The notes below the pieces were generated by a model. It was not told the origin of the DNA and searched no databases. It saw nothing but the letters and a program-made list of their open reading frames with translations. This document shows positions 1-55,086 of a stretch of 64,000 nucleotides of DNA, piece after piece (within the stretch, counting starts at the first letter, position 1; the number at the start of each line of letters is the position of its first letter). Where the stretch lies: NCBI RefSeq assembly GCF_017348835.2, contig NZ_CP071375.1. One strand, written 5' to 3'. The DNA comes from Escherichia coli (GTDB taxonomy: Bacteria > Pseudomonadota > Gammaproteobacteria > Enterobacterales > Enterobacteriaceae). The position numbers were made by a program, and so were the translations under genes.

Positions 1-215
<215 letters not shown>

Positions 216-283
216 CCTTAAAGAAGCGTTCTTTGTAGTGCTCACACAGATTGTCTGATGAAAATGAGCAGTAAAACCTCTAC

Positions 284-360
<77 letters not shown>

Positions 361-402
361 AATTTGCACGGCAAATTTGAAGAGGTTTTAACTACATGTT
401 AT

Positions 403-478
403 GGGGCTATAGCTCAGCTGGGAGAGCGCCTGCTTTGCACGCAGGAGGTCTGCGGTTCGATCCCGCATAGCTCCACCA
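403..478 (+). tRNA. alaT: tRNA-Ala (TGC anticodon), rrn spacer tRNA
   Basis: GGGGCTATAGCTCAGCTGGGAGAGCGCCTGCTTTGCACGCAGGAGGTCTGCGGTTCGATCCCGCATAGCTCCACCA. Confidence 0.95.
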
Positions 479-652
479 TCTCTGTAGTGATTAAATAAAA
501 AATACTTCAGAGTGTACCTGCAAAGGTTCACTGCGAAGTTTTGCTCTTTAAAAATCTGGATCAAGCTGAAAATTGAAACACTGAACAATGAAAGTTGTTC
601 GTGAGTCTCTCAAATTTTCGCAACTCTGAAGTGAAACATCTTCGGGTTGTGA

Positions 653-3555
<2,903 letters not shown>

Positions 3556-3648
3556 ACAACGCCGAAGGTGTTTTGGCGGATTGAGAGAAGATTTTCAGCC
3601 TGATACAGATTAAATCAGAACGCAGAAGCGGTCTGATAAAACAGAATT

Positions 3649-3768
3649 TGCCTGGCGGCCGTAGCGCGGTGGTCCCACCTGACCCCATGCCGAACTCAGA
3701 AGTGAAACGCCGTAGCGCCGATGGTAGTGTGGGGTCTCCCCATGCGAGAGTAGGGAACTGCCAGGCAT
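3649..3768 (+). rRNA. rrf: 5S rRNA
   Basis: TGCCTGGCGGCCGTAGCGCGGTGGTCCCACCTGACCCCATGCC...GGGAACTGCCAGGCAT, 120 nt. Confidence 0.95.
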
Positions 3769-5378: not shown

Positions 5379-6365
5379 ATGAACAACAGCGCTTTTACTT
5401 TCCAGACACTACACCCGGATACCATCATGGACGCTCTGTTTGAACAAGGGATCCGGGTGGATTCCGGTCTTACCCCGCTTAACAGCTATGAAAACCGTGT
5501 CTATCAATTTCAGGACGAAGATCGTCGACGTTTTGTCGTCAAATTTTATCGTCCTGAACGTTGGACAGCCGATCAAATCCTCGAAGAACATCAATTTGCG
5601 TTGCAGCTGGTAAATGATGAAGTTCCGGTTGCAGCACCTGTGGCTTTTAACGGTCAGACTTTATTGAATCATCAGGGATTTTATTTCGCTGTTTTTCCCA
5701 GCGTCGGTGGTCGCCAGTTCGAAGCTGATAATATCGATCAGATGGAAGCGGTTGGGCGTTATTTAGGGCGTATGCACCAGACGGGGCGCAAACAGCTTTT
5801 TATCCATCGCCCGACCATCGGTCTGAATGAATATCTCATTGAGCCACGCAAGCTGTTTGAGGACGCTACACTGATACCTTCCGGGTTGAAAGCGGCATTC
5901 CTGAAAGCGACAGATGAGCTGATCGCCGCCGTTACAGCACACTGGCGGGAAGACTTCACCGTTCTGCGGCTACATGGAGACTGCCACGCCGGGAATATTC
6001 TCTGGCGCGATGGTCCAATGTTTGTTGATCTGGATGATGCACGTAATGGTCCAGCTATTCAGGATTTGTGGATGTTGCTCAATGGCGATAAAGCCGAGCA
6101 GCGGATGCAACTGGAAACTATTATTGAAGCTTATGAAGAATTTAGCGAGTTCGACACCGCTGAAATCGGACTGATTGAACCTTTACGCGCCATGCGTTTG
6201 GTTTATTATCTTGCCTGGCTAATGCGGCGTTGGGCTGATCCCGCGTTCCCGAAAAATTTCCCGTGGTTAACCGGGGAAGATTACTGGCTACGACAGACGG
6301 CGACTTTTATAGAACAGGCAAAAGTTCTACAAGAACCCCCTTTGCAATTAACACCTATGTATTAA
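5379..6365 (+). CDS. srkA: Stress-response Ser/Thr protein kinase SrkA (RdoA/YihE)
   Basis: 328-aa ORF with the kinase-like motifs HGDCHAGNILW and DLDD. Confidence 0.9.
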   Translation: MNNSAFTFQTLHPDTIMDALFEQGIRVDSGLTPLNSYENRVYQFQDEDRRRFVVKFYRPERWTADQILEEHQFALQLVNDEVPVAAPVAFNGQTLLNHQGFYFAVFPSVGGRQFEADNIDQMEAVGRYLGRMHQTGRKQLFIHRPTIGLNEYLIEPRKLFEDATLIPSGLKAAFLKATDELIAAVTAHWREDFTVLRLHGDCHAGNILWRDGPMFVDLDDARNGPAIQDLWMLLNGDKAEQRMQLETIIEAYEEFSEFDTAEIGLIEPLRAMRLVYYLAWLMRRWADPAFPKNFPWLTGEDYWLRQTATFIEQAKVLQEPPLQLTPMY

Positions 6366-12716: not shown

Positions 12717-12863
12717 GATTCGCCTGAACATGCCCTTTTTTCGTAAGTAAGCAACATAAGCTGTCACGTTTTGTGATGGCTATTAGAAATTCCTATGCAA
12801 CAACTGAAAAAAAATTACAAAAAGTGCTTTCTGAACTGAACAAAAAAGAGTAAAGTTAGTCGC

Positions 12864-12972
12864 GTAGGGTACAGAGGTAAGATGTTCTATCTTTCAGACC
12901 TTTTACTTCACGTAATCGGATTTGGCTGAATATTTTAGCCGCCCCAGTCAGTAATGACTGGGGCGTTTTTTA
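12864..12972 (+). ncRNA. spf: Spot 42 small RNA
   Basis: GTAGGGTACAGAGGTAAGATGTTCTATCTTTCAGACC...GCCGCCCCAGTCAGTAATGACTGGGGCGTTTTTTA matches Spot 42 from memory, with a terminal hairpin and U-tract; position after polA. Confidence 0.85.
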
Positions 12973-14000: not shown

Positions 14001-14245
14001 ATAGAGCGAGGACGCTAACAGGAACAATGACTCAGGATGAGGGTCAGGAGCGCCAGGAGGCGAAGACAGAGGATTGTCAGGAAGACAAACGTCCGGAGAC
14101 GTAATTAAACGGAAATGGAATCAACACGGATTGTTCCGGCTAATGGAAAAACAGGGTGTGTTGGCGGCCTGCAAGGATTGTAAGACCCGTTAAGGGTTAT
14201 GAGTCAGGAAAAAAGGCGACAGAGTAATCTGTCGCCTTTTTTCTT
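14001..14245 (+). ncRNA. csrC: CsrC small RNA (CsrA-sequestering)
   Basis: Multiple GGA-containing repeats (CAGGATGA, AGGAGC, CAGGAAGA, ACGGA...) and a terminal hairpin GGCGACAGAGTAATCTGTCGCCTTTTTT; lies between engB and yihI. Ends are approximate. Confidence 0.75.
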
Positions 14246-14311
14246 TGCTTGCTTTCTGTTAGATTCCGCCGCAAATCTATACTGAATAAAACGGCTAAAA
14301 GACGAACCATT

Positions 14312-46171: not shown

Positions 46172-46694
46172 ATGTCTGACCATAATCCACTGACATTAAA
46201 ACTGAATCTGCGGGAAAAAATCGCCTATGGTATGGGCGACGTCGGTTCGAATTTAATGCTTAGCATCGGTACTCTGTATCTCCTCAAATTTTATACCGAT
46301 GAATTAGGGATGCCAGCTTACTATGGCGGGATTATCTTTCTGGTGGCGAAGTTTTTTACCGCGTTTACCGATATGCTCACCGGATTTTTACTCGACTCGC
46401 GGAAAAATATTGGGCCTAAAGGCAAATTTCGTCCCTTTATTTTATATGCAGCGGTTCCGGCGGCGTTAATTGCAACGCTCCAGTTTATCGCCACCACCTT
46501 TAGTTTGCCGGTTAAAACGACGATTGCCACCGCGCTGTTTATGATGTTTGGACTTTCATACAGTCTGATGAACTGCTCGTATGGTGCGATGATCCCGGCA
46601 ATTACCAAAAACCCGAATGAGCGCGCGCAGCTCGCGGCTTACCGCCAGGGTGGTGCAACCATAGGGCTATTGATTTGTACCGTGGCGTTTATTC
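46172..46694 (+). pseudogene. yihO: yihO, N-terminal fragment truncated by the IS
   Basis: MSDHNPLTLKLNLREKIAYGMGD... runs into the IS left end at 46695; the track ORF's last residues (NRPGNPGD) are read from IS sequence. Confidence 0.85.
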
Positions 46695-46748
46695 TGAACC
46701 GCCCCGGAAATCCTGGAGACTAAACTCCCTGAGAAAGAGGTAAACAGG

Positions 46749-47075
46749 ATGACTAAAAATACTCGTTTTTCCCCCGAAGTCCGTCAGCGGGCGATTCGTA
46801 TGGTTCTGGAAAGTCAGGATGAATATGACTCACAGTGGGCGGCAATTTGTTCCATTGCCCCAAAGATTGGCTGTACGCCGGAGACTCTGCGTGTCTGGGT
46901 TCGCCAGCATGAGCGGGATACCGGGAGTGGTGATGGTGGACTCACCACCGCTGAACGTCAGCGTCTGAAAGAGCTGGAACGTGAAAATCGTGAACTGCGC
47001 CGCAGTAACGATATCCTTCGCCAGGCTTCCGCTTATTTTGCGAAGGCGGAGTTCGACCGCCTCTGGAAAAAATAA
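46749..47075 (+). CDS. IS3-family transposase OrfA, copy 2
   Basis: Protein identical to the copy-1 OrfA. Confidence 0.9.
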
Positions 47076-47962
47076 TGCCACTGCTGGATAAGCTGCGTGA
47101 GCAGTACGGGGGCGGACCGGTATGCAGCGAACTGCATATTGCCCCGTCAACGTATTACCATTGTCAGCAACAGCGACATCATCCGGATAAACGCAGTGCC
47201 CGTGCGCAGCACGATGACTGGCTGAAGAAAGAGATACAGCGCGTATACGATGAAAATCACCAGGTATACGGTGTGCGTAAAGTCTGGCGTCAGTTGTTAC
47301 GGGAAGGTATCAGAGTGGCCAGATGCACTGTGGCACGTCTCATGGCAGTTATGGGACTTGCCGGTGTTCTCCGGGGTAAAAAGGTCCGCACTACCGTCAG
47401 CCGGAAAGCCGTTGCCGCATGCGACCGCGTAAACCGTCAGTTCGTGGCAGAACGTCCAGACCAGTTGTGGGTGGCTGATTTTACCTGGGTAAGCACATGG
47501 CAGGGCTTCGTTTATGTGGCGTTCATCATTGATGTGTTCGCCGGATACATCGTGGGATGGCAGGTCTCATCATCCATGGAAACAACATTCGTGCTGGATG
47601 CACTGGAGCAGGCGTTGTGGGCCCGTCGGCCGTCCGGCACAATCCATCACAGTGATAAAGGTTCTCAGTATGTATCGCTGGCCTACACGCAGCGGCTTAA
47701 GGAAGCCGGATTACTGGCATCAACAGGGAGTACTGGCGACTCGTATGACAACGCGATGGCTGAGAGCATCAATGGTCTTTACAAAGCGGAGGTAATACAC
47801 CGTAAGAGCTGGAAAAACCGGACAGAAGTGGAACTGGCCACACTAACGTGGGTGGACTGGTATAACAATCGACGATTGCTGGAAAGGCTGGGCCATATTC
47901 CTCCGGCAGAAGCAGAAAAAGCTTATTATGCTTCCATCGGAAATAATGATCTGGCAGCCTGA
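47075..47962 (+). CDS. IS3-family transposase OrfB (DDE), copy 2
   Basis: Protein identical to the copy-1 OrfB; -1 frame relative to orfA. Confidence 0.9.
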   Translation: MPLLDKLREQYGGGPVCSELHIAPSTYYHCQQQRHHPDKRSARAQHDDWLKKEIQRVYDENHQVYGVRKVWRQLLREGIRVARCTVARLMAVMGLAGVLRGKKVRTTVSRKAVAACDRVNRQFVAERPDQLWVADFTWVSTWQGFVYVAFIIDVFAGYIVGWQVSSSMETTFVLDALEQALWARRPSGTIHHSDKGSQYVSLAYTQRLKEAGLLASTGSTGDSYDNAMAESINGLYKAEVIHRKSWKNRTEVELATLTWVDWYNNRRLLERLGHIPPAEAEKAYYASIGNNDLAA

Positions 47963-48004
47963 GTTCACAGATAAAACACTCTCCAGGAAACCCGGGGCGG
48001 TTCA

Positions 48005-48535: not shown

Positions 48536-49465
48536 TTACTCCCCTTCACCCGGAAACAGGAACGGGTTGATGGAACTGCGGGCATAGCCTTCTTGCTCCA
48601 TTCGTGCGTCCAGTACCAGAGAGGCGAGGTCATCTGCTACGGCTTCGATTTTTGGATCTTTTTCCTGATAGAGAATTTTCAGGTAAGTGCCGCAGTCATC
48701 GCAGCTTTCGGCTTTAATCGCGGCCTGTTCGTCATCCAGCGACCAGTAATGCAGTTTGCCGCTCTGCTCGCAGTTGCTGCATTTTACGCGCACTACGTGC
48801 CATTCGGTTTCACACAGGTTGCAGTGCAGGTAACGCAGACCCTGAGTGGTGCCAATTTGCACCATGCTGGACACCGGCATAGAGCCACATACCGGGCAAT
48901 ATTGACGTTGTTCGCCGTATTCAGCGCGGGCTTTGCCGGGGATCAGATTGGCCATCTGCGCCCAGTAGAGCGACAGCGCAGCCCAGATAAACGGCGCTTT
49001 ATCGCTGCTGACGGACGAGAAATCAGAGGCAAACAGCGCGCTGGCCATATCTTCCAGCTCCTGAGTCGATGCCTTCTCCAGATTCTCAATCACTGCCAGC
49101 GCCGGGCCGCTCATTTCAGGTTTCAGCTCAGCAATTAGCGCCATCAGCAGCTTTTGCCAGTGCTTATCACGCGGCAGAACGTGAATATCCAGCGGGGGCT
49201 TGCCCTGTGCGCTGGCTTCTTTAATGCGCGCGGTCAGATCCATCTCCAGCGGATGGTCGTACAGCACCACTTCCTGGGCGTGGGCGATAAGCGCAGCAAA
49301 GCGCAGGTAATCACCCAGCGGATTATTTTCTGCCAGCTCGCGCAGACGCTCGGCGCGGCGGTTGTATAAATTCTTGAGCCGAGGGAACAATAACGGCGGA
49401 ATCATATCCGCCGTACGTTTCTCGCTCGAACCCAGCTCATCTTGCGGGATTATGCGAATACTCAT
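48536..49465 (-). CDS. fdhE: Formate dehydrogenase formation protein FdhE
   Basis: 309 aa with paired CxxC motifs ([25 protein letters not shown]). Confidence 0.93.
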
Positions 49466-50097
49466 TCAGCTTTCTTTTCCGTTGTCTTGCGGACCTCACG
49501 GTACCAGCGCGGGTGATGTTTCTTCGCCCAGGCGCTGGTAACCCATCCTTCCACCATGGCGGTAATCGTGCCTTTCACCCAAAGGGCGGCGTAGATATGC
49601 ACCATGATAACCACAATTAACGCCACTGCGGCAAATGAATGCAGCATTAACGCGAATCGGATCACCGGGATTGAGAAAGCAGGCGCAAAATAAGGACGCC
49701 AGATAATCACGCCGCTCACCAGCAGCAGAACCAGGAAAATAATCGCCGCCCAGAAAACGCATTTCTGACCGAAGTTATAACGCCCGGTGTCACCTACTTC
49801 CTCGTTGACGACGATCTTACGAATATTCTTCGCCCAAAAGATATCATCCCGATTGATTAGGTTGTGATGCCAGTAACGGAAAAACATGATGATGAACGAG
49901 GCAAACATAACCACGCCGACAAACGGGTGCAGAATTCGCGCCAGCTGCGGTGTGCCCATGATTTGCATCAACCAGTTGAAGGACGGGAACAAAAAGCCCA
50001 GCCCGCTCACCGCCGCCAGGATGAAGCAGAAGGCGGTGATCCAGTGGTTGATACGTTCCGGCGCGGTGTAGCGCACGATGGTGTCACGTCGTTTCAT
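49462..50097 (-). CDS. fdoI: Formate dehydrogenase-O cytochrome b556 subunit
   Basis: 211-aa membrane ORF overlapping fdoH and fdhE. Confidence 0.92.
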
Positions 50098-50996
50098 TTG
50101 CGCTCCTCGTCTTTCTCTTCGTGCAGATTATTCTCTTCCTCATCCGCACGGTTCGGACCGACACCCACGTAGTGGAAGATACTGGCTGCGAAGGTAGCCG
50201 CAAAGCCAACAGCTGCGAGCGGTTTCCAGATGCCTTTCCAGAATTTCACGGTTTCGCTGATTTCCGGGTTCTCCGGCAAGCCATGATACAGATTTGGCTT
50301 GTCAGCATGGTGCAGCACGTACATAACGTGTGTACCACCGACGCCTGCCGGATCGTACAGACCCGCATTGTCGTAACCGCGGGTTTTCAGCTCAGCAACG
50401 CGCTCGCTCGCCAGCGTTTTCATCGACTCTTTCGTACCGAAGTGAATCGCGCCCGTTGGGCAGGTCTTCACGCAGGCTGGTTCTTGCCCAACCACCACGC
50501 GGTCAACGCACAGCGTACATTTGTAGACGCGGTTGTCTTCCGGGTTGAGGCGCGGAATGTCGAACGGACAGCCCGCAATGCAATAACCGCAGCCAATGCA
50601 CTGCTCGGACTGGAAGTCGACGATACCGTTGGCATACTGAATAATTGCACCTTCCGCCGGGCACGCTTTCAGGCAGCCTGGATCGGAACAGTGCATACAG
50701 CCGTCTTTGCGGATCAGCCATTCCAGTTTGTCGTTCTGCTCCACTTCTGAGAAGCGCATCACCGTCCACGATTTGGCGCTTAAATCATTGGGGTTGTCGT
50801 ACACCCCAATGTTATTGCCGACGGTATCGCGAATGTCGTTCCACTCTGAACACGCCACCTGACAGGCTTTACAGCCGATACAGGTGGTGACGTCGATGAG
50901 TTTCGCCACTTCTTCCTGGAAGTCCCGCGCCTGAGGCGCGGGGGTCAGACCGTTAGTCGCGGAACGACGAATGATATCTTGCGATTGATAAGCCAT
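50094..50996 (-). CDS. fdoH: Formate dehydrogenase-O iron-sulfur subunit
   Basis: 300 aa with several 4Fe-4S ferredoxin motifs ([37 protein letters not shown]). Confidence 0.93.
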
Positions 50997-51008: not shown

Positions 51009-54000
51009 TTACACCTTTTCCACATTCACAAGGAAGGACTTAAACTCCGGCGTCTGCGTGTTCGCATCACCAACGAATGGCGTTAACGTATTGGCAATAA
51101 AGCCTTTTTTAGCTACGCCTTCATAGCCCCAGTGAATCGGAATACCGATGGTATCGATATCTTTGCCGTTCGCTTTCAGCGTGCGAATACGTTTGGTCAC
51201 CACCGCTTTGGCTTTGATATAGCCACGGTTGGAGGAGACTTTCACGGTATCGCCCTGGGCAATGCCAAGTTTATTCGCCAGCGACTCACCGATTTCCACA
51301 AACTGCTCTGGCTGCAAAATCGCGTTCAACAGCGCGTGTTTGGTCCAGTAGTGGAAGTGCTCGGTCAGACGATAGGTGGTTCCGACATACGGGAACTTAT
51401 CGGCTTTACCCAATGCTTCGGCGTCGTCTTTAAAGATTCGCGCAGCCGGGTTCGAGATAACGTTTGGATGCAGCGGGTTAGTTCCCAGCGGCGTTTCAAA
51501 CGGCTCGTAGTGTTCCGGGAACGGACCTTCCGCCATCTTATCGAGGGCAAACAGACGTCCCATGCCTTCCTGCTGCATGATAAACGGCCCGACGCCGCTG
51601 CCCGGAGGCGCTGCGCTGTAGTCCGGAATATCCCAGCCGGTCCACTTAGTGCCGTCCCATTTCAGCAACTGACGCTTCGGATCCCACGGGTTACCCTGCG
51701 GATCTGCGGAGGCGCGGTTATACAGAATGCGGCGGTTAAGCGGCCATGCCCATGCCCAGCCCAGTGTGTTACCGAGGCCAGACGGATCGGCGTTATCACG
51801 GCGTGCCATCTGGTTGCCTTCCGGCGTCCAGCTACCGGCGAAAATCCAGCAGCCACAGGAGGTTGTACCATCATCGCGCAGTTGGGCGAACGAGCTAAGT
51901 TGTTGGCCTTTCTTGACGATAACCGCACCGGTTGCCGGATCGGTAATATCGGCCAGCGCCTTACCGTTGCTCTCCATCGCTACTTCTTCCGACTTCGGCT
52001 CATGCGGAATGGCGTAGTTCCATGTCATGTTCAGCACCTGGTCCGGGTTCGCGCCACCCTGTTCGGCATACATCTTGCGCAAGCGCAGGAAGATACCGGA
52101 GAGGATCTCGCCGTCAGTCAGCGCAATCCCCGGGGCGTCCGCACCTTTCCAGTGCCACTGTAACCAGCGACCTGAGTTAACGATTGAACCGTTCTCTTCT
52201 GCGAAGCAGGTCGATGGCAGACGGAACACTTCGGTCTGGATCTTCGACGAGTCAACTTCGTTCAGCTCACCGTGGTTCTGCCAGAAGTTAGAGGTTTCAG
52301 TGTTCAGCGGGTCGATGGTGACGAGGAACTTCAGTTTCGACAGACAACCGATCACTTTGTTTTTGTTCGGGAATGAGGCAACAGGGTTAAAGCCCTGGCA
52401 GATATAGCCATTGACCTTGCCCTCTTTCATCATCTCGAAGTATTGCAGGACGTCGTAGCCTTTATCCCACTTCGGCAACCAGTCAAAGCCCCAGCTATTT
52501 TCCGCCGTCGCTTTATCACCAAAGAAGGCCTTCATCATGGAGACGAAGAATTTCGGGTAGTTGCCCCAGTAGTTTACCTGGCCTTCCAGCAGCGGTTTTG
52601 GCGTGTTGGCGGTAAGGTAGGTTTGCAGATCGGTCTGCTTCTCGCTTGGCAGCGTCATGTAACCCGGCAGGCTCTGCGACAGCAGCCCCAGGTCCGTCAG
52701 CCCCTGAATATTGGAGTGACCGCGCAGGGCGTTAACGCCGCCGCCTGCCATCCCCATATTGCCGAGCAGCAGCTGGATCATCGCCATCGTACGAATGTTC
52801 TGCGCACCAACGGAGTGTTGCGTCCAGCCGAGGGCATACAGGAACGAGGCAGTTTTATCGTGAGCACTGGTTTCTGCGATGTATTCGCTGACTTTCAGGA
52901 ACGCGTCTTTTGGCGTACCACAGATGTTTTCAACCACATCTGGCGTGTAGCGGGAAACGTGCTGTTTCAGCAAGTTCCACACGCAGCGCGGATGTTGCAG
53001 CGTGGTATCGCGTTTGGCGAAGCCGTTTTCGTCCAGTTCGTAAGTCCAGGAGGATTTATCGTACTTGCGTTTTTCCGCGTCATAGCCGGTGAACAGGCCA
53101 TCTTCAAAGCCGTAATCCTCACGCACGATCAGGCTGGCGTTGGTATAGGCTTCGGTGTATTCGCGGTTGAATTTTTCATTGTTCAGCAGGTACAGCAATA
53201 CGCCTGACAGGAAAGCAATGTCAGTACCGGAACGAATAGGGGCATAGTAGTCAGCCACCGCCGCCGTACGCGTAAAGCGAGGATCGATCACAATCAGCTT
53301 CGCGCCATTGTGAATTTTGGCTTCCATCGCCCAGCGGAACCCGACCGGGTGAGCTTCAGCGGCGTTACCGCCCATCACCACGACGAGGTTGGCGTTCTTG
53401 ATGTCGACCCAGTGGTTGGTCATCGCACCGCGACCAAATGTTGGAGCAAGACTTGCTACCGTTGGTCCGTGTCAGACACGCGCCTGGTTGTCGACCGCGA
53501 GCATACCCAGCGCGCGGGAGAATTTTTGCGTTAAATAGCCGGTTTCGTTACTCGACGCGGAAGCACACAGCATCCCGGTGGAGAGCCAGCGGTTAACAGT
53601 CACGCCTTCGGCGTTTTGCGCAATGTAGTTAGCATCGCGGTCTTCTTTCATCAGTTTGGCGATGCGATCAAACGCCTCTTCCCAACTGATTTGCTGCCAT
53701 TTATCAGAACCTGGCGCACGGTATTCCGGAAACTTCAGACGGCTTTCGGAGTGGATGAAATCCACCAGGCCAGCGCCTTTCGGACAAAGTGCACCGCGGT
53801 TGACCGGGTGATCCGGATCGCCTTCGATATGGAAGATAGATGCTTTGGCGTTTTTTGCTCCGTCACCGAGGCTGTACATCAACAGCCCACAGCCTACGGA
53901 ACAATAGGTGCAGGTATTACGGGTTTCGCGGGTGCGCAGCAGTTTATACTGCCGGGTTTCCGCGAGTGCTACGCTGGGTGCAAAACCCAGTGCCGCTGCC

Positions 54001-54059
54001 GTGGTGCCTGCCATACCGCCAGCGCAGATCTTAAAGAACTGCCTTCTGCTGACCTGCAT
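51009..54059 (-). CDS. fdoG: Formate dehydrogenase-O catalytic subunit (selenocysteine-containing, Tat-exported)
   Basis: Track ORFs 53472..54059 and 51009..53423 share a frame and are joined by a single in-frame TGA (plus-strand TCA at 53472..53474) in the context ...ARV-U-HGPTVA...; twin-arginine signal RRQFFK at the N-terminus; 1016 codons in total. Confidence 0.93.
53425..53471 (-). promoter_or_regulatory. Probable SECIS stem-loop immediately 3' of the fdoG UGA codon
   Basis: Position inferred from the in-frame UGA and the known requirement for a downstream SECIS in bacterial selenoprotein mRNAs; the structure itself was not folded here. Confidence 0.5.
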
Positions 54060-54252
54060 GGATTGCTCCTTGTTTCGACATTGTCACGTCCCATTTACAT
54101 TCGCTTGCTGCGTGTGCAGGGAGTGGGAGTTATTTTTCTTTGCGGAAGGGGCCGCAAAGGTCCAGAATTGGCTCAATTTCCCTCCATCCAGGAAGGGTTT
54201 GTAACAGAATACCATAATGTTGGTGTGTGTGTTCTTATCTGGTTAAGAGAAA

Positions 54253-55086
54253 GTGAAAAAAACACAGCAAAAAGAAATCGAAAATGTGACAAATATCACA
54301 GGTGTTCGTCAAATTGAGTTATGGCGGCGTGATGATTTACAACACCCACGGTTAGATGAGGTCGCGGAAGAAGTTCCCGTTGCGCTGGTCTACAACGGCA
54401 TTTCGCATGTGGTGATGATGGCGTCGCCCAAAGACCTTGAGTACTTTGCGCTCGGTTTTTCGCTTTCCGAGGGGATAATAGAAAGTCCGCGCGATATCTT
54501 CGGCATGGATGTCGTTCCTTCCTGTAATGGTCTTGAAGTACAAATTGAGCTTTCCAGCCGCCGCTTTATGGGGTTGAAGGAGCGCCGCCGGGCGCTGGCG
54601 GGACGTACGGGCTGTGGCGTATGCGGCGTGGAGCAACTTAATGACATCGGAAAACCGGTGCAGCCGCTACCGTTCACCCAGACGTTTGATCTCAACAAAC
54701 TGGATGATGCATTACGTCATCTCAACGATTTTCAGCCAGTGGGGCAACTGACTGGTTGTACTCACGCCGCTGCATGGATGTTGCCATCTGGCGAACTGGT
54801 CGGCGGGCATGAAGACGTGGGTCGCCATGTGGCGCTGGACAAACTGTTAGGCCGCCGGTCACAAGAAGGGGAAAGCTGGCAGCAAGGTGCGGTACTGGTT
54901 TCCAGTCGTGCCAGTTATGAAATGGTGCAAAAGTCGGCGATGTGCGGCGTAGAGATTTTGTTTGCGGTGTCTGCCGCGACCACGCTTGCTGTAGAAGTGG
55001 CTGAGCGCTGTAATTTGACACTGGTAGGTTTTTGTAAGCCGGGTCGGGCAACGGTTTATACCCATCCGCAGCGTTTGAGCAATTAA
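54253..55086 (+). CDS. fdhD: Formate dehydrogenase accessory sulfurtransferase FdhD
   Basis: 277-aa ORF divergent from fdoG. Confidence 0.92.

Follow-up and report, generated by a model that had tools for sequence, protein, structure and literature searches.

Introduction

The selenocysteine at position 196 of E. coli FdoG and the SECIS element belonging to it have stood in textbooks since the 1990s, and the finding described here is already known and holds nothing new for biology. The experimentally dissected bacterial SECIS is that of E. coli fdhF (Sec140 of FDH-H), which is Rfam SECIS_2-like and serves a cytoplasmic protein without a Tat signal; bacterial SECIS elements have a minimal element of 17 nt and a spacing of 11 nt. 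Their conserved bulged U and loop GU are required for SelB binding (PMC8704476). In the catalytic subunits of all three E. coli formate dehydrogenases a selenocysteine ligand coordinates bis-MGD, FDH-N being induced by nitrate and FDH-O also being made aerobically at low levels (PMC6239281).

In this study, we analysed a window of 64,000 nucleotides from E. coli strain PE164, which matches the PE164 genome at 100% identity over 25 kb. In it, the initial annotation had interpreted an in-frame TGA of fdoG as a selenocysteine codon. The closest described relative is K-12 fdoG (b3894, Sec196), which is the same gene with like neighbours (fdoH, fdoI, fdhE, fdhD, yiiG) and is distinguished from the PE164 copy by strain-level polymorphism only. 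FdnG (PDB 1KQF/1KQG, SeCys196) is a paralogue encoded at another locus (fdnGHI, b1474-1476), which carries Sec in the same column and whose 71-nt SECIS region is identical to that of fdoG in the window. In the fdhF element, UGAC, G15 and G16, the bulged U17 and the loop nucleotides G23 and U24 are spaced as in fdoG, counted from the UGA, with a compensatory change in the apical stem (A18-U to U18-A); the element differs by an apical stem that is one pair shorter, a 4-nt GGUC loop and another lower-stem sequence.

We consider it nearly certain that this E. coli fdoG is intact and that its codon 196, the TGA at 53474..53472 on the minus strand, encodes selenocysteine. What we observed directly comprises the reading frame, the codon and its alignment with SeCys196, the SECIS match, the support that homologues give to the hairpin, and selABCD in the genome. 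The gene is taken to be intact because the apparent stop is a selenocysteine UGA with its hairpin signal directly downstream.

Reading frame and identity of fdoG

Translation of 54059..51009 on the minus strand, a strand that the initial annotation had left unstated, yielded one frame of 1016 codons without frameshifts, in which the TGA at codon 196 is the sole internal stop. The list of open reading frames cuts the gene into two minus-strand parts, 53472..54059 (195 aa) and 51009..53423 (804 aa). Since (53472-51009) mod 3 = 0, both parts share a frame, and translation together with this arithmetic bears out the earlier statement that they are joined by a single TGA. In RefSeq the PE164 gene is a single non-pseudo CDS of 3051 nt with coordinates identical to this frame. 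The features of the locus are collected in Table 1.

Table 1. Features of the fdoG locus in the PE164 window
Feature	Coordinates	Strand	Remarks
fdoG, catalytic alpha subunit of formate dehydrogenase-O	51009..54059	-	1016 codons incl. Sec196, plus stop codon
Shine-Dalgarno AAGGAG	54066..54071	-	6 nt upstream of fdoG ATG, read from sequence
Putative Tat signal peptide, codons 1-33	53961..54059	-	SRRQFFK, hydrophobic region, ending ALA
In-frame UGA, codon 196, read as selenocysteine	53472..53474	-	next base C (UGAC); column of FdnG Sec
Bacterial SECIS, Rfam RF01989 SECIS_3	53419..53477	-	3 nt before UGA to 53 nt after
Apical SECIS hairpin GGUAGCAAGUCUUGCUCC	53443..53460	-	nt 15-32 from U of UGA
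71-nt block, frozen synonymous sites	53407..53477	-	identical in window fdoG and K-12 fdnG
fdoH, iron-sulfur beta subunit	50094..50996	-	TIGR01582, 478.7 bits; RefSeq
fdoI, cytochrome b556 gamma subunit	49462..50097	-	NF007924, 453 bits; RefSeq
fdhE, formate dehydrogenase accessory protein	48536..49465	-	RefSeq annotation, identical PE164 sequence
fdhD, sulfurtransferase, divergent from fdoG	54253..55086	+	TIGR00129, 340 bits; annotation

The product matched TIGR01553, the model of the selenocysteine-containing formate dehydrogenase-N/O alpha subunit, over residues 2-1015 with 1570 bits (cut-off 814.2), and the Pfam domains PF04879, PF00384 and PF01568 were each found above threshold. Nucleotide identity to K-12 b3894 amounts to 99.12%, with 27 of 3051 nt and two amino acids (S391C, K689S) differing and zero differences within about 90 nt on either side of the TGA, while amino acid identity to fdnG is 76.9% over the full length. 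By identity and synteny with K-12 b3894, the gene is the orthologue of fdoG and not of fdnG. The RefSeq record of the PE164 gene carries the label 'fdnG'.

All four cysteines of the [4Fe-4S] cluster are present (Cys50/53/57/92). His197, adjacent to Sec196, and the conserved Arg446 are likewise present; both have catalytic roles in the 1KQF enzyme. The TGA resides in the protein context AVDNQARV*HGPTVASLAPT, as expected from the conserved ARV-U-HGPTV surroundings named in the initial annotation, which had also proposed an alignment with selenocysteine-containing formate dehydrogenases. In this alignment 1kqf_A (FdnG) runs unbroken over residues 1-1015 across the TGA, with SeCys196 in the TGA column. 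Unbroken homology to FdnG combined with a stop located precisely in the selenocysteine column indicates that the position of the TGA is not due to chance.

The same data bear on the possibility that two genes are present, with translation stopping at the UGA and the 804-aa protein starting independently at the ATG at 53423. The downstream open reading frame does have this ATG, and in cells short of selenium ribosomes would be expected to terminate at the UGA and leave a fragment of 195 residues. However, both the Pfam Molybdopterin domain (residues 107-589), which straddles the TGA, and the single-chain structure 1KQF cross the junction, the 16 codons from the TGA to the ATG encode conserved protein sequence (HGPTVASLAPTFGRGA), and the residue at the TGA is a catalytic metal ligand (PMC6239281). 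We therefore regard two separate genes as exceedingly improbable.

The protein begins with MQVSRRQFFK and continues with a hydrophobic stretch up to ALA|E; in this region, which aligns with the N-terminus of FdnG, a twin-arginine motif is recognised by eye. The Tat signal claimed for this protein is thus backed by its motif and by homology to FdnG, while profile searches gave no match above threshold: the generic Tat profile TIGR01409 reached 10.6 bits (cut-off 16.7), and no Tat domain was reported in the Pfam search of fdoG. We accordingly list the signal peptide as putative.

The SECIS element downstream of the UGA

The initial annotation had marked 53425..53474, which corresponds to the TGA (53474..53472) and the 47 nt 3' of it, i.e. 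the hairpin region, and had named the lack of a SECIS-like structure as evidence that would speak against its reading. The SECIS_3 covariance model detected an element at and after the TGA with 84.3 bits (gathering score 63; E = 1.4e-18 on the whole window), slightly wider than that span (53477..53419 compared to 53425..53474). The match is full-length (model 1-59 of 59), with the UGA at model positions 4-6. SECIS_3 is thus matched over its full length at a formate dehydrogenase UGA, with the enterobacterial sequence departing from the model in two lower-stem pairs, which in E. coli are non-canonical (A-C and A-G); ViennaRNA favours a lower-stem register shifted by one relative to the Rfam consensus. 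Membership in SECIS_2, the family of the fdhF type, was rejected, since the score of 28.1 bits is below the threshold of 70.

The apical hairpin has the layout GG-U-AGCAA-GUC-UUGCU-CC, with the bulged U17 at 53458 and the loop nucleotides G23 and U24 at 53452/53451, and was found in the MFE fold, the centroid fold and the Rfam consensus structure. The initial annotation had proposed to fold the 40 nt 3' of the UGA. Folding recovered the hairpin, but the folding energy by itself did not discriminate: for 50 nt it amounts to -14.6 kcal/mol, corresponding to z = -1.03, which is not significant, as 25 of 200 shuffled sequences folded equally well. For a context of 116 nt z was +0.73, leaving a predicted long-range GUCGAC/GUCGAC helix unsupported. 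With the energy signal being weak, we relied on the covariance model and on counts of base pairs instead. On the basis of published work and of the identical element in fdnG, the SECIS of fdoG is predicted to bind SelB and to direct selenocysteine insertion.

Selenocysteine and cysteine homologues

We scanned the genomes of 100,044 species with a pattern whose sole requirement was the protein context A-R-V-[TGA/TGY]-H-G-P-[T/S]-V. At least 103 sites with TGA and at least 16 with a cysteine codon were found in many species; these at least 119 sites are an arbitrary sample, and the scan pattern itself fixes some bases, including U17. In 59 distinct TGA homologues from other species among the matches listed, 97.1% of cells of the apical helix were paired, and four of its seven pairs showed compensatory changes on both sides. 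The apical covariation score was reached by none of 500 shuffles, and slid registers gave at most 50% pairing. In the lower helix, 84% pairing and no double-sided covariation were observed for the TGA homologues among the matches listed.

This conservation is decisive for the question whether the TGA is a genuine defect, i.e. a nonsense mutation or a sequencing error that would make fdoG a pseudogene in PE164. Such a reading could draw on the split in the list of open reading frames and on the many public gene calls that give the 195-aa and 804-aa proteins separately. It is opposed by the 71 nt around the TGA, for which the best match shows 100% identity in 5432 of 5433 E. coli records and which occur in two places per genome, by the presence of the same TGA in K-12 fdoG, fdnG and fdhF as well as in the scan sites of many species, and by an otherwise clean frame that bears no pseudogene flag in RefSeq. 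Since the TGA region is conserved across E. coli, we consider a defect refuted and give it practically no weight.

The cysteine-codon homologues behave differently from those with TGA, with only 42% pairing of the apical helix in the 16 sequences among the matches listed. The synonymous third position at nucleotide 15 carries G in 65 of 67 TGA sequences versus 3 of 16 cysteine sequences, and G23 U24 occurs in 65 of 67 versus 5 of 16, both among the matches listed. In folding energy the two classes differed modestly (Mann-Whitney p of about 0.03, among the matches listed).

When the base after a UGA is C, as here, the stop codon is comparatively leaky. The codon could thus be read by near-cognate suppression, with insertion of Trp or Cys and without SelB and Sec-tRNA, the hairpin being a by-product of protein coding; that the hairpin MFE is not significant by itself would agree with this. 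However, among the matches listed, homologues with a cysteine codon and very similar peptides (e.g. HGPTVSALASTFGRG) have neither the hairpin nor the fixed synonymous G15. The compensatory changes and frozen synonymous sites likewise argue against suppression, as do the complete selABCD set of the genome and the selenocysteine ligand published for all three E. coli formate dehydrogenases (PMC6239281). Near-cognate suppression is therefore judged very unlikely, and the comparison favours decoding of the UGA as selenocysteine.

The synonymous sites around the TGA were further compared between the paralogues. The 71-nt block is the longest identical run between fdoG and fdnG, whose overall nucleotide identity is 74.7%, and comprises 21 identical synonymous codons in a row, a result matched by 36 of 20000 shuffles. 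Across 20 enterobacterial loci, third-position identity is 0.95-0.99 within the block versus about 0.55 in the flanks. In Enterobacterales the freeze extends from codon -1 to about codon +21, which carries it roughly 18 nt beyond the predicted hairpin on the 3' side. This frozen tail may have an RNA function of its own in addition to the known SECIS, an idea that we regard as unlikely; it may offer SelB or the ribosome an extra contact, signal a pause or a change of translation rate once selenocysteine has been inserted, or be the target of a regulatory RNA. Alternatively, the tail could be a by-product of gene conversion between fdoG and fdnG or of codon preference.

Selenocysteine machinery and proposed decoding

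Within the window no selenocysteine machinery was found, the tRNA search returning only tRNA-Ile and tRNA-Ala, both in the rrn operon. In the PE164 genome selA and selB (141745-144977), selC encoding tRNA-Sec (65055-65149) and selD (2841085-2842128) are all annotated as intact. The absence of selABCD, which the initial annotation had named as a second finding that would count against selenocysteine, is therefore not what the genome displays. Each of the sel genes was found in 5424-5425 of 5426 complete E. coli genomes.

For SelB binding, selenium insertion and Tat export in PE164 we rely on established knowledge, from which the following sequence of events would be expected. As the ribosome nears the UGA, the mRNA just downstream would fold into the SECIS hairpin, to which the C-terminal domain of SelB would bind while SelB carries GTP and Sec-tRNA(Sec). 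This tRNA, the product of selC, would be charged with serine and converted by SelA with selenophosphate from SelD. SelB would bring Sec-tRNA to the A site, competing there with release factor 2, and the selenocysteine, once inserted, would be the residue through which the protein coordinates the molybdenum of the bis-MGD cofactor in formate dehydrogenase-O. FdoGHI would then be membrane-bound, periplasm-facing and Tat-exported, and would pass electrons from formate to the quinone pool.

Neighbouring genes and annotation in public databases

The neighbours of fdoG fit this assignment, with the TIGR01582, NF007924 and TIGR00129 matches all being over their cut-offs. The gamma subunit scored higher with the FDH-O model NF007924 (453 bits) than with the FDH-N model NF007558 (244 bits). 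All three E. coli formate dehydrogenases depend for their maturation on FdhD (PMC6239281), which is encoded divergently from fdoG. PE164 carries a large inversion relative to K-12, and an IS3-bounded inversion ends about 0.5 kb beyond fdhE.

For genome annotation, scans should call the TGA of fdoG neither a pseudogene nor a boundary between two genes, and the gene constitutes a clean positive control for the detection of recoding. The signal is identified by the covariance model and the comparison of selenocysteine and cysteine homologues, while folding energy alone fails to do so. The remark that automated callers often split this gene agrees with the databases, where both exact fragments exist as proteins, the 195-aa fragment on at least 1000 contigs and the 804-aa fragment on 14, while RefSeq/PGAP calls fdoG correctly. 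Public protein sets thus contain split calls in abundance, and wrong names are borne by some entries of the 195-aa fragment.

Reading frame and gene identity

The in-frame TGA of fdoG could be confirmed, and its interpretation as a selenocysteine codon and not a defect, as put forward in the initial annotation, is supported by the selenocysteine column of 1kqf_A, the SECIS_3 match, the comparison of Sec and Cys homologues and the sel genes. Since (53472-51009) mod 3 = 0, the 195-aa and 804-aa ORFs lie in a common frame, and translation of the whole gene gives codon 196 (context AVDNQARV*HGPTVASLAPT) as the sole internal stop, so that ORF list and translation both bear out the described split by one TGA. 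From the frame and the TGA position it follows that the initially highlighted span 53425..53474 consists of the TGA and the 47 nt 3' of it.

Window 27001-52000 (25 kb) is 100% identical to E. coli strain PE164 (NZ_CP114128.1), the only one among 5426 complete genomes to cover at least 80% of it. In the RefSeq record of PE164, our annotated counterpart, 51009-54059 corresponds to a single, unjoined 3051-nt CDS without pseudogene flag, flanked by fdoH, fdoI, fdhE and the divergent fdhD. The gene differs from K-12 fdoG (b3894) at 27 of 3051 nt and two amino acids (99% identity), while its identity to the FDH-N paralogue fdnG is 76.9% (aa) and 74.7% (nt); the adjoining gamma subunit scores 453 bits with the FDH-O model versus 244 bits with the FDH-N model. 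On these three grounds the name fdoG is right, as originally assigned. RefSeq/PGAP calls the PE164 locus 'fdnG, formate dehydrogenase-N subunit alpha' despite its neighbours fdoH and fdoI, a naming inconsistency that is systematic across the listed E. coli genomes; the label is a generic name derived from TIGR01553. All 27 differences to K-12 fall downstream of the UGA; the 585 nt before it (53475-54059) are identical where an even spread would predict about five differences, and this one-sidedness may reflect a recombination mosaic.

Both exact fragments exist as public database proteins, the N-terminal one on at least 1000 contigs (cluster of 3382 members) and the 804-aa one on 14 contigs (cluster of 6687 members), with 'formate dehydrogenase-O major subunit [E. 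coli KTE214]', 804 aa, as a named example. Given this abundance, split calls are common, as had been anticipated, though RefSeq/PGAP calls the gene correctly. Some 195-aa fragments (Cronobacter malonaticus, Hafnia alvei) carry the name 'sulfate ABC transporter substrate-binding protein', probably a mis-annotation spread from the Tat-signal region.

Features of the window and of the PE164 genome
Feature	Position	Remark
fdoG, single frame	54059..51009 (-)	1016 codons
N-terminal ORF	53472..54059 (-)	195 aa; six-frame ORF listing
C-terminal ORF	51009..53423 (-)	804 aa; six-frame ORF listing; starts at first ATG past the stop
Codon 196, TGA	53474..53472 (-)	next base C
SECIS_3 (RF01989)	53477..53419 (-)	full length; 84.3 bits vs 63, E = 1.4e-18
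Run identical to K-12 fdnG	53477..53407	71 nt
3' tail of run	53407-53425	
16S rRNA 3' end	1-215	rRNA operon, 1-3766
tRNA-Ile, tRNA-Ala	284-478	same operon
StyR-44	546-645	match
23S rRNA	653-3555	same operon
5S rRNA	3651-3766	same operon
Spot 42	12854-12972	Rfam match
CsrC	14001-14254	Rfam match
ES222	21029-21136	Rfam match
STnc370	23026-23094	marginal Rfam match, 55.6 bits vs threshold 54
yihN (MFS transporter)	~25058-26323	annotated pseudogene with internal stop in PE164
yihO pieces	27173-28060; 46172-46693	
IS3-family copies	28057-29366; 46695-48004	1310 nt each
Inverted segment	29367-46694	17.3 kb
tRNA-Sec (selC)	PE164 65055-65149	annotated intact
selA + selB	PE164 141745-144977	annotated intact
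selD	PE164 2841085-2842128	annotated intact

Protein context

The product scores 1570 bits with the TIGR01553 profile (cut-off 814) and contains the Pfam domains Fe4S4, Molybdopterin and dinucleotide-binding, with the TGA inside the Molybdopterin domain (residues 107-589). The best solved relative, E. coli FdnG (1kqf_A), aligns over residues 1-1015 and places its selenocysteine, written X, in exactly the TGA column, so that the proposed alignment with selenocysteine formate dehydrogenases supports the claim. His197, Arg446 and Cys50/53/57/92 are all found. This continuity of domains and structure across the TGA contradicts readings of the codon as a pseudogene defect, as the division between two separate genes or as a UGA read through without selenocysteine. 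In all three E. coli formate dehydrogenases bis-MGD is coordinated via a selenocysteine ligand, and FdoGHI faces the periplasm with the I subunit as anchor (PMC6239281). The Tat signal ascribed to the N-terminus is supported by homology and by a motif read by eye (SRRQFFK, a hydrophobic region, then ALA), but the generic Tat profile scored under threshold there.

SECIS hairpin and comparative evidence

The Rfam scan of the whole window at gathering threshold yielded the SECIS_3 match; SECIS_2 (fdhF-type) membership was rejected at only 28.1 bits vs threshold 70. Counted from the U of UGA, the apical hairpin GG-U-AGCAA-GUC-UUGCU-CC has U17 bulged and G23 U24 in the loop; SelB binding requires such conserved features, a bulged U and unpaired GU in the loop (PMC8704476). 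The hairpin of K-12 fdhF, the FDH-H gene, has U17, G23 and U24 at equal positions and differs in the apical stem by a compensatory A18-U to U18-A exchange. Folding energy by itself is uninformative here: the 50-nt fold reaches -14.6 kcal/mol (z = -1.03, 25 of 200 shuffles being as stable) and the 116-nt context z = +0.73. In the suggested check by folding the nucleotides 3' of the UGA, energy alone did not discriminate; the hairpin was identified by the Rfam match.

A pattern scan of one genome per species (100,044 species), fixing only A-R-V-(TGA/TGC/TGT)-H-G-P-(T/S)-V, gave at least 119 usable sites among the matches listed, a sample with at least 103 TGA and at least 16 Cys codons. In 59 distinct Thr-type TGA sequences among the matches listed, window included, 97.1% of apical-helix cells are paired, four of seven apical pairs are changed on both sides (18-30 GC/AU/CG, 19-29 GC/UG, 21-27 AU/CG/GC), the covariation score was reached by 0 of 500 shuffles, and sliding the 3' partner by one to three columns leaves 28-50% pairing. 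The lower helix is paired in 84% of cells of these sequences, with no pair covarying on both sides, a weakness consistent with the apical part being the functional core, as Liu et al. reportedly found in 1998. In the 16 Cys-codon homologues among the matches listed, whose encoded peptides are very similar to the TGA class, apical pairs form in just 42% of cells. Nucleotide 15, a synonymous third position, is G in 65/67 TGA versus 3/16 Cys sequences among the matches listed, and G23 U24 occurs in 65/67 versus 5/16, whereas U17 is held constant by the Val codon of the scan pattern. Both the conservation of the TGA and this contrast between Sec and Cys homologues again oppose a pseudogene, two genes and read-through without selenocysteine. 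Two loci outside the window (L040 and L087, from Desulfovibrio and Mailhella) have TGA in the same protein context with the sequence GGUACCGGCUCUGGCAGAG, which lacks GU at nt 23-24 and misfits the SECIS_3 apical hairpin, suggesting a different SECIS form in Desulfovibrionaceae.

The longest run identical between window fdoG and K-12 fdnG starts 3 nt 5' of the UGA and holds 21 consecutive identical synonymous codons, matched by 36 of 20000 shuffles. In 5432 of 5433 E. coli records its best match is at 100% identity, and the median genome has it at two places. When 20 distinct enterobacterial loci are compared with the window, identity at third positions is 0.95-0.99 for codons -1 to +21 against ~0.55 in the flanks. 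While the 5' edge coincides with the hairpin start, the 3' edge lies ~18 nt past the end of the predicted hairpin, and the fold of the 116-nt context revealed no long-range structure supporting this tail. The tail, the sole non-trivial loose end of the case, may stem from gene conversion between fdoG and fdnG, from codon preference or from a further function of the RNA. In the E. coli collection, seven fdoG/fdnG matches, 71-nt SECIS block included, lie on records classed as plasmids.

Decoding machinery

Within the window there are no sel genes, and its only tRNAs are tRNA-Ile and tRNA-Ala. The initial annotation had named a lack of SECIS-like structure and of selABCD as grounds against its claim; what we find is the SECIS_3 match and all four genes in PE164. 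Among 5426 complete E. coli genomes, selA/selB, selC and selD are each present in 5424-5425; fdoG is missing in one, selAB in one and selD in one. Codon, homology, comparatively supported SECIS and machinery are all present, and from established knowledge we infer SelB binding and selenium insertion in PE164. SelB with GTP and Sec-tRNA(Sec) would bind the apical hairpin emerging at the ribosome and deliver the tRNA at the UGA, with C as next base, in competition with RF2, and the selenocysteine would become the Mo ligand of FDH-O. The Sec codon and SECIS of fdoG are already known, and the case is of value as a positive control and as a caution for annotation.

Genomic surroundings

The two IS3-family copies are inverted relative to each other and 100% complementary, each with one ALIL frameshift pseudoknot. 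Relative to K-12, the segment that they enclose is inverted; it reaches from part of yihO to yiiE, and yihO is broken into pieces, an arrangement found in PE164 alone among 5426 genomes. This resembles an IS3-mediated inversion whose end lies ~0.5 kb from fdhE. The order of the rRNA operon fits an rrnA-type spacer. Gene orientation at four loci outside the window (L007, L132-L134) shows that PE164 carries a large chromosomal inversion compared with K-12: minCDE and selD have the K-12 orientation, while the dnaA-selC-selA region lies opposite to it.
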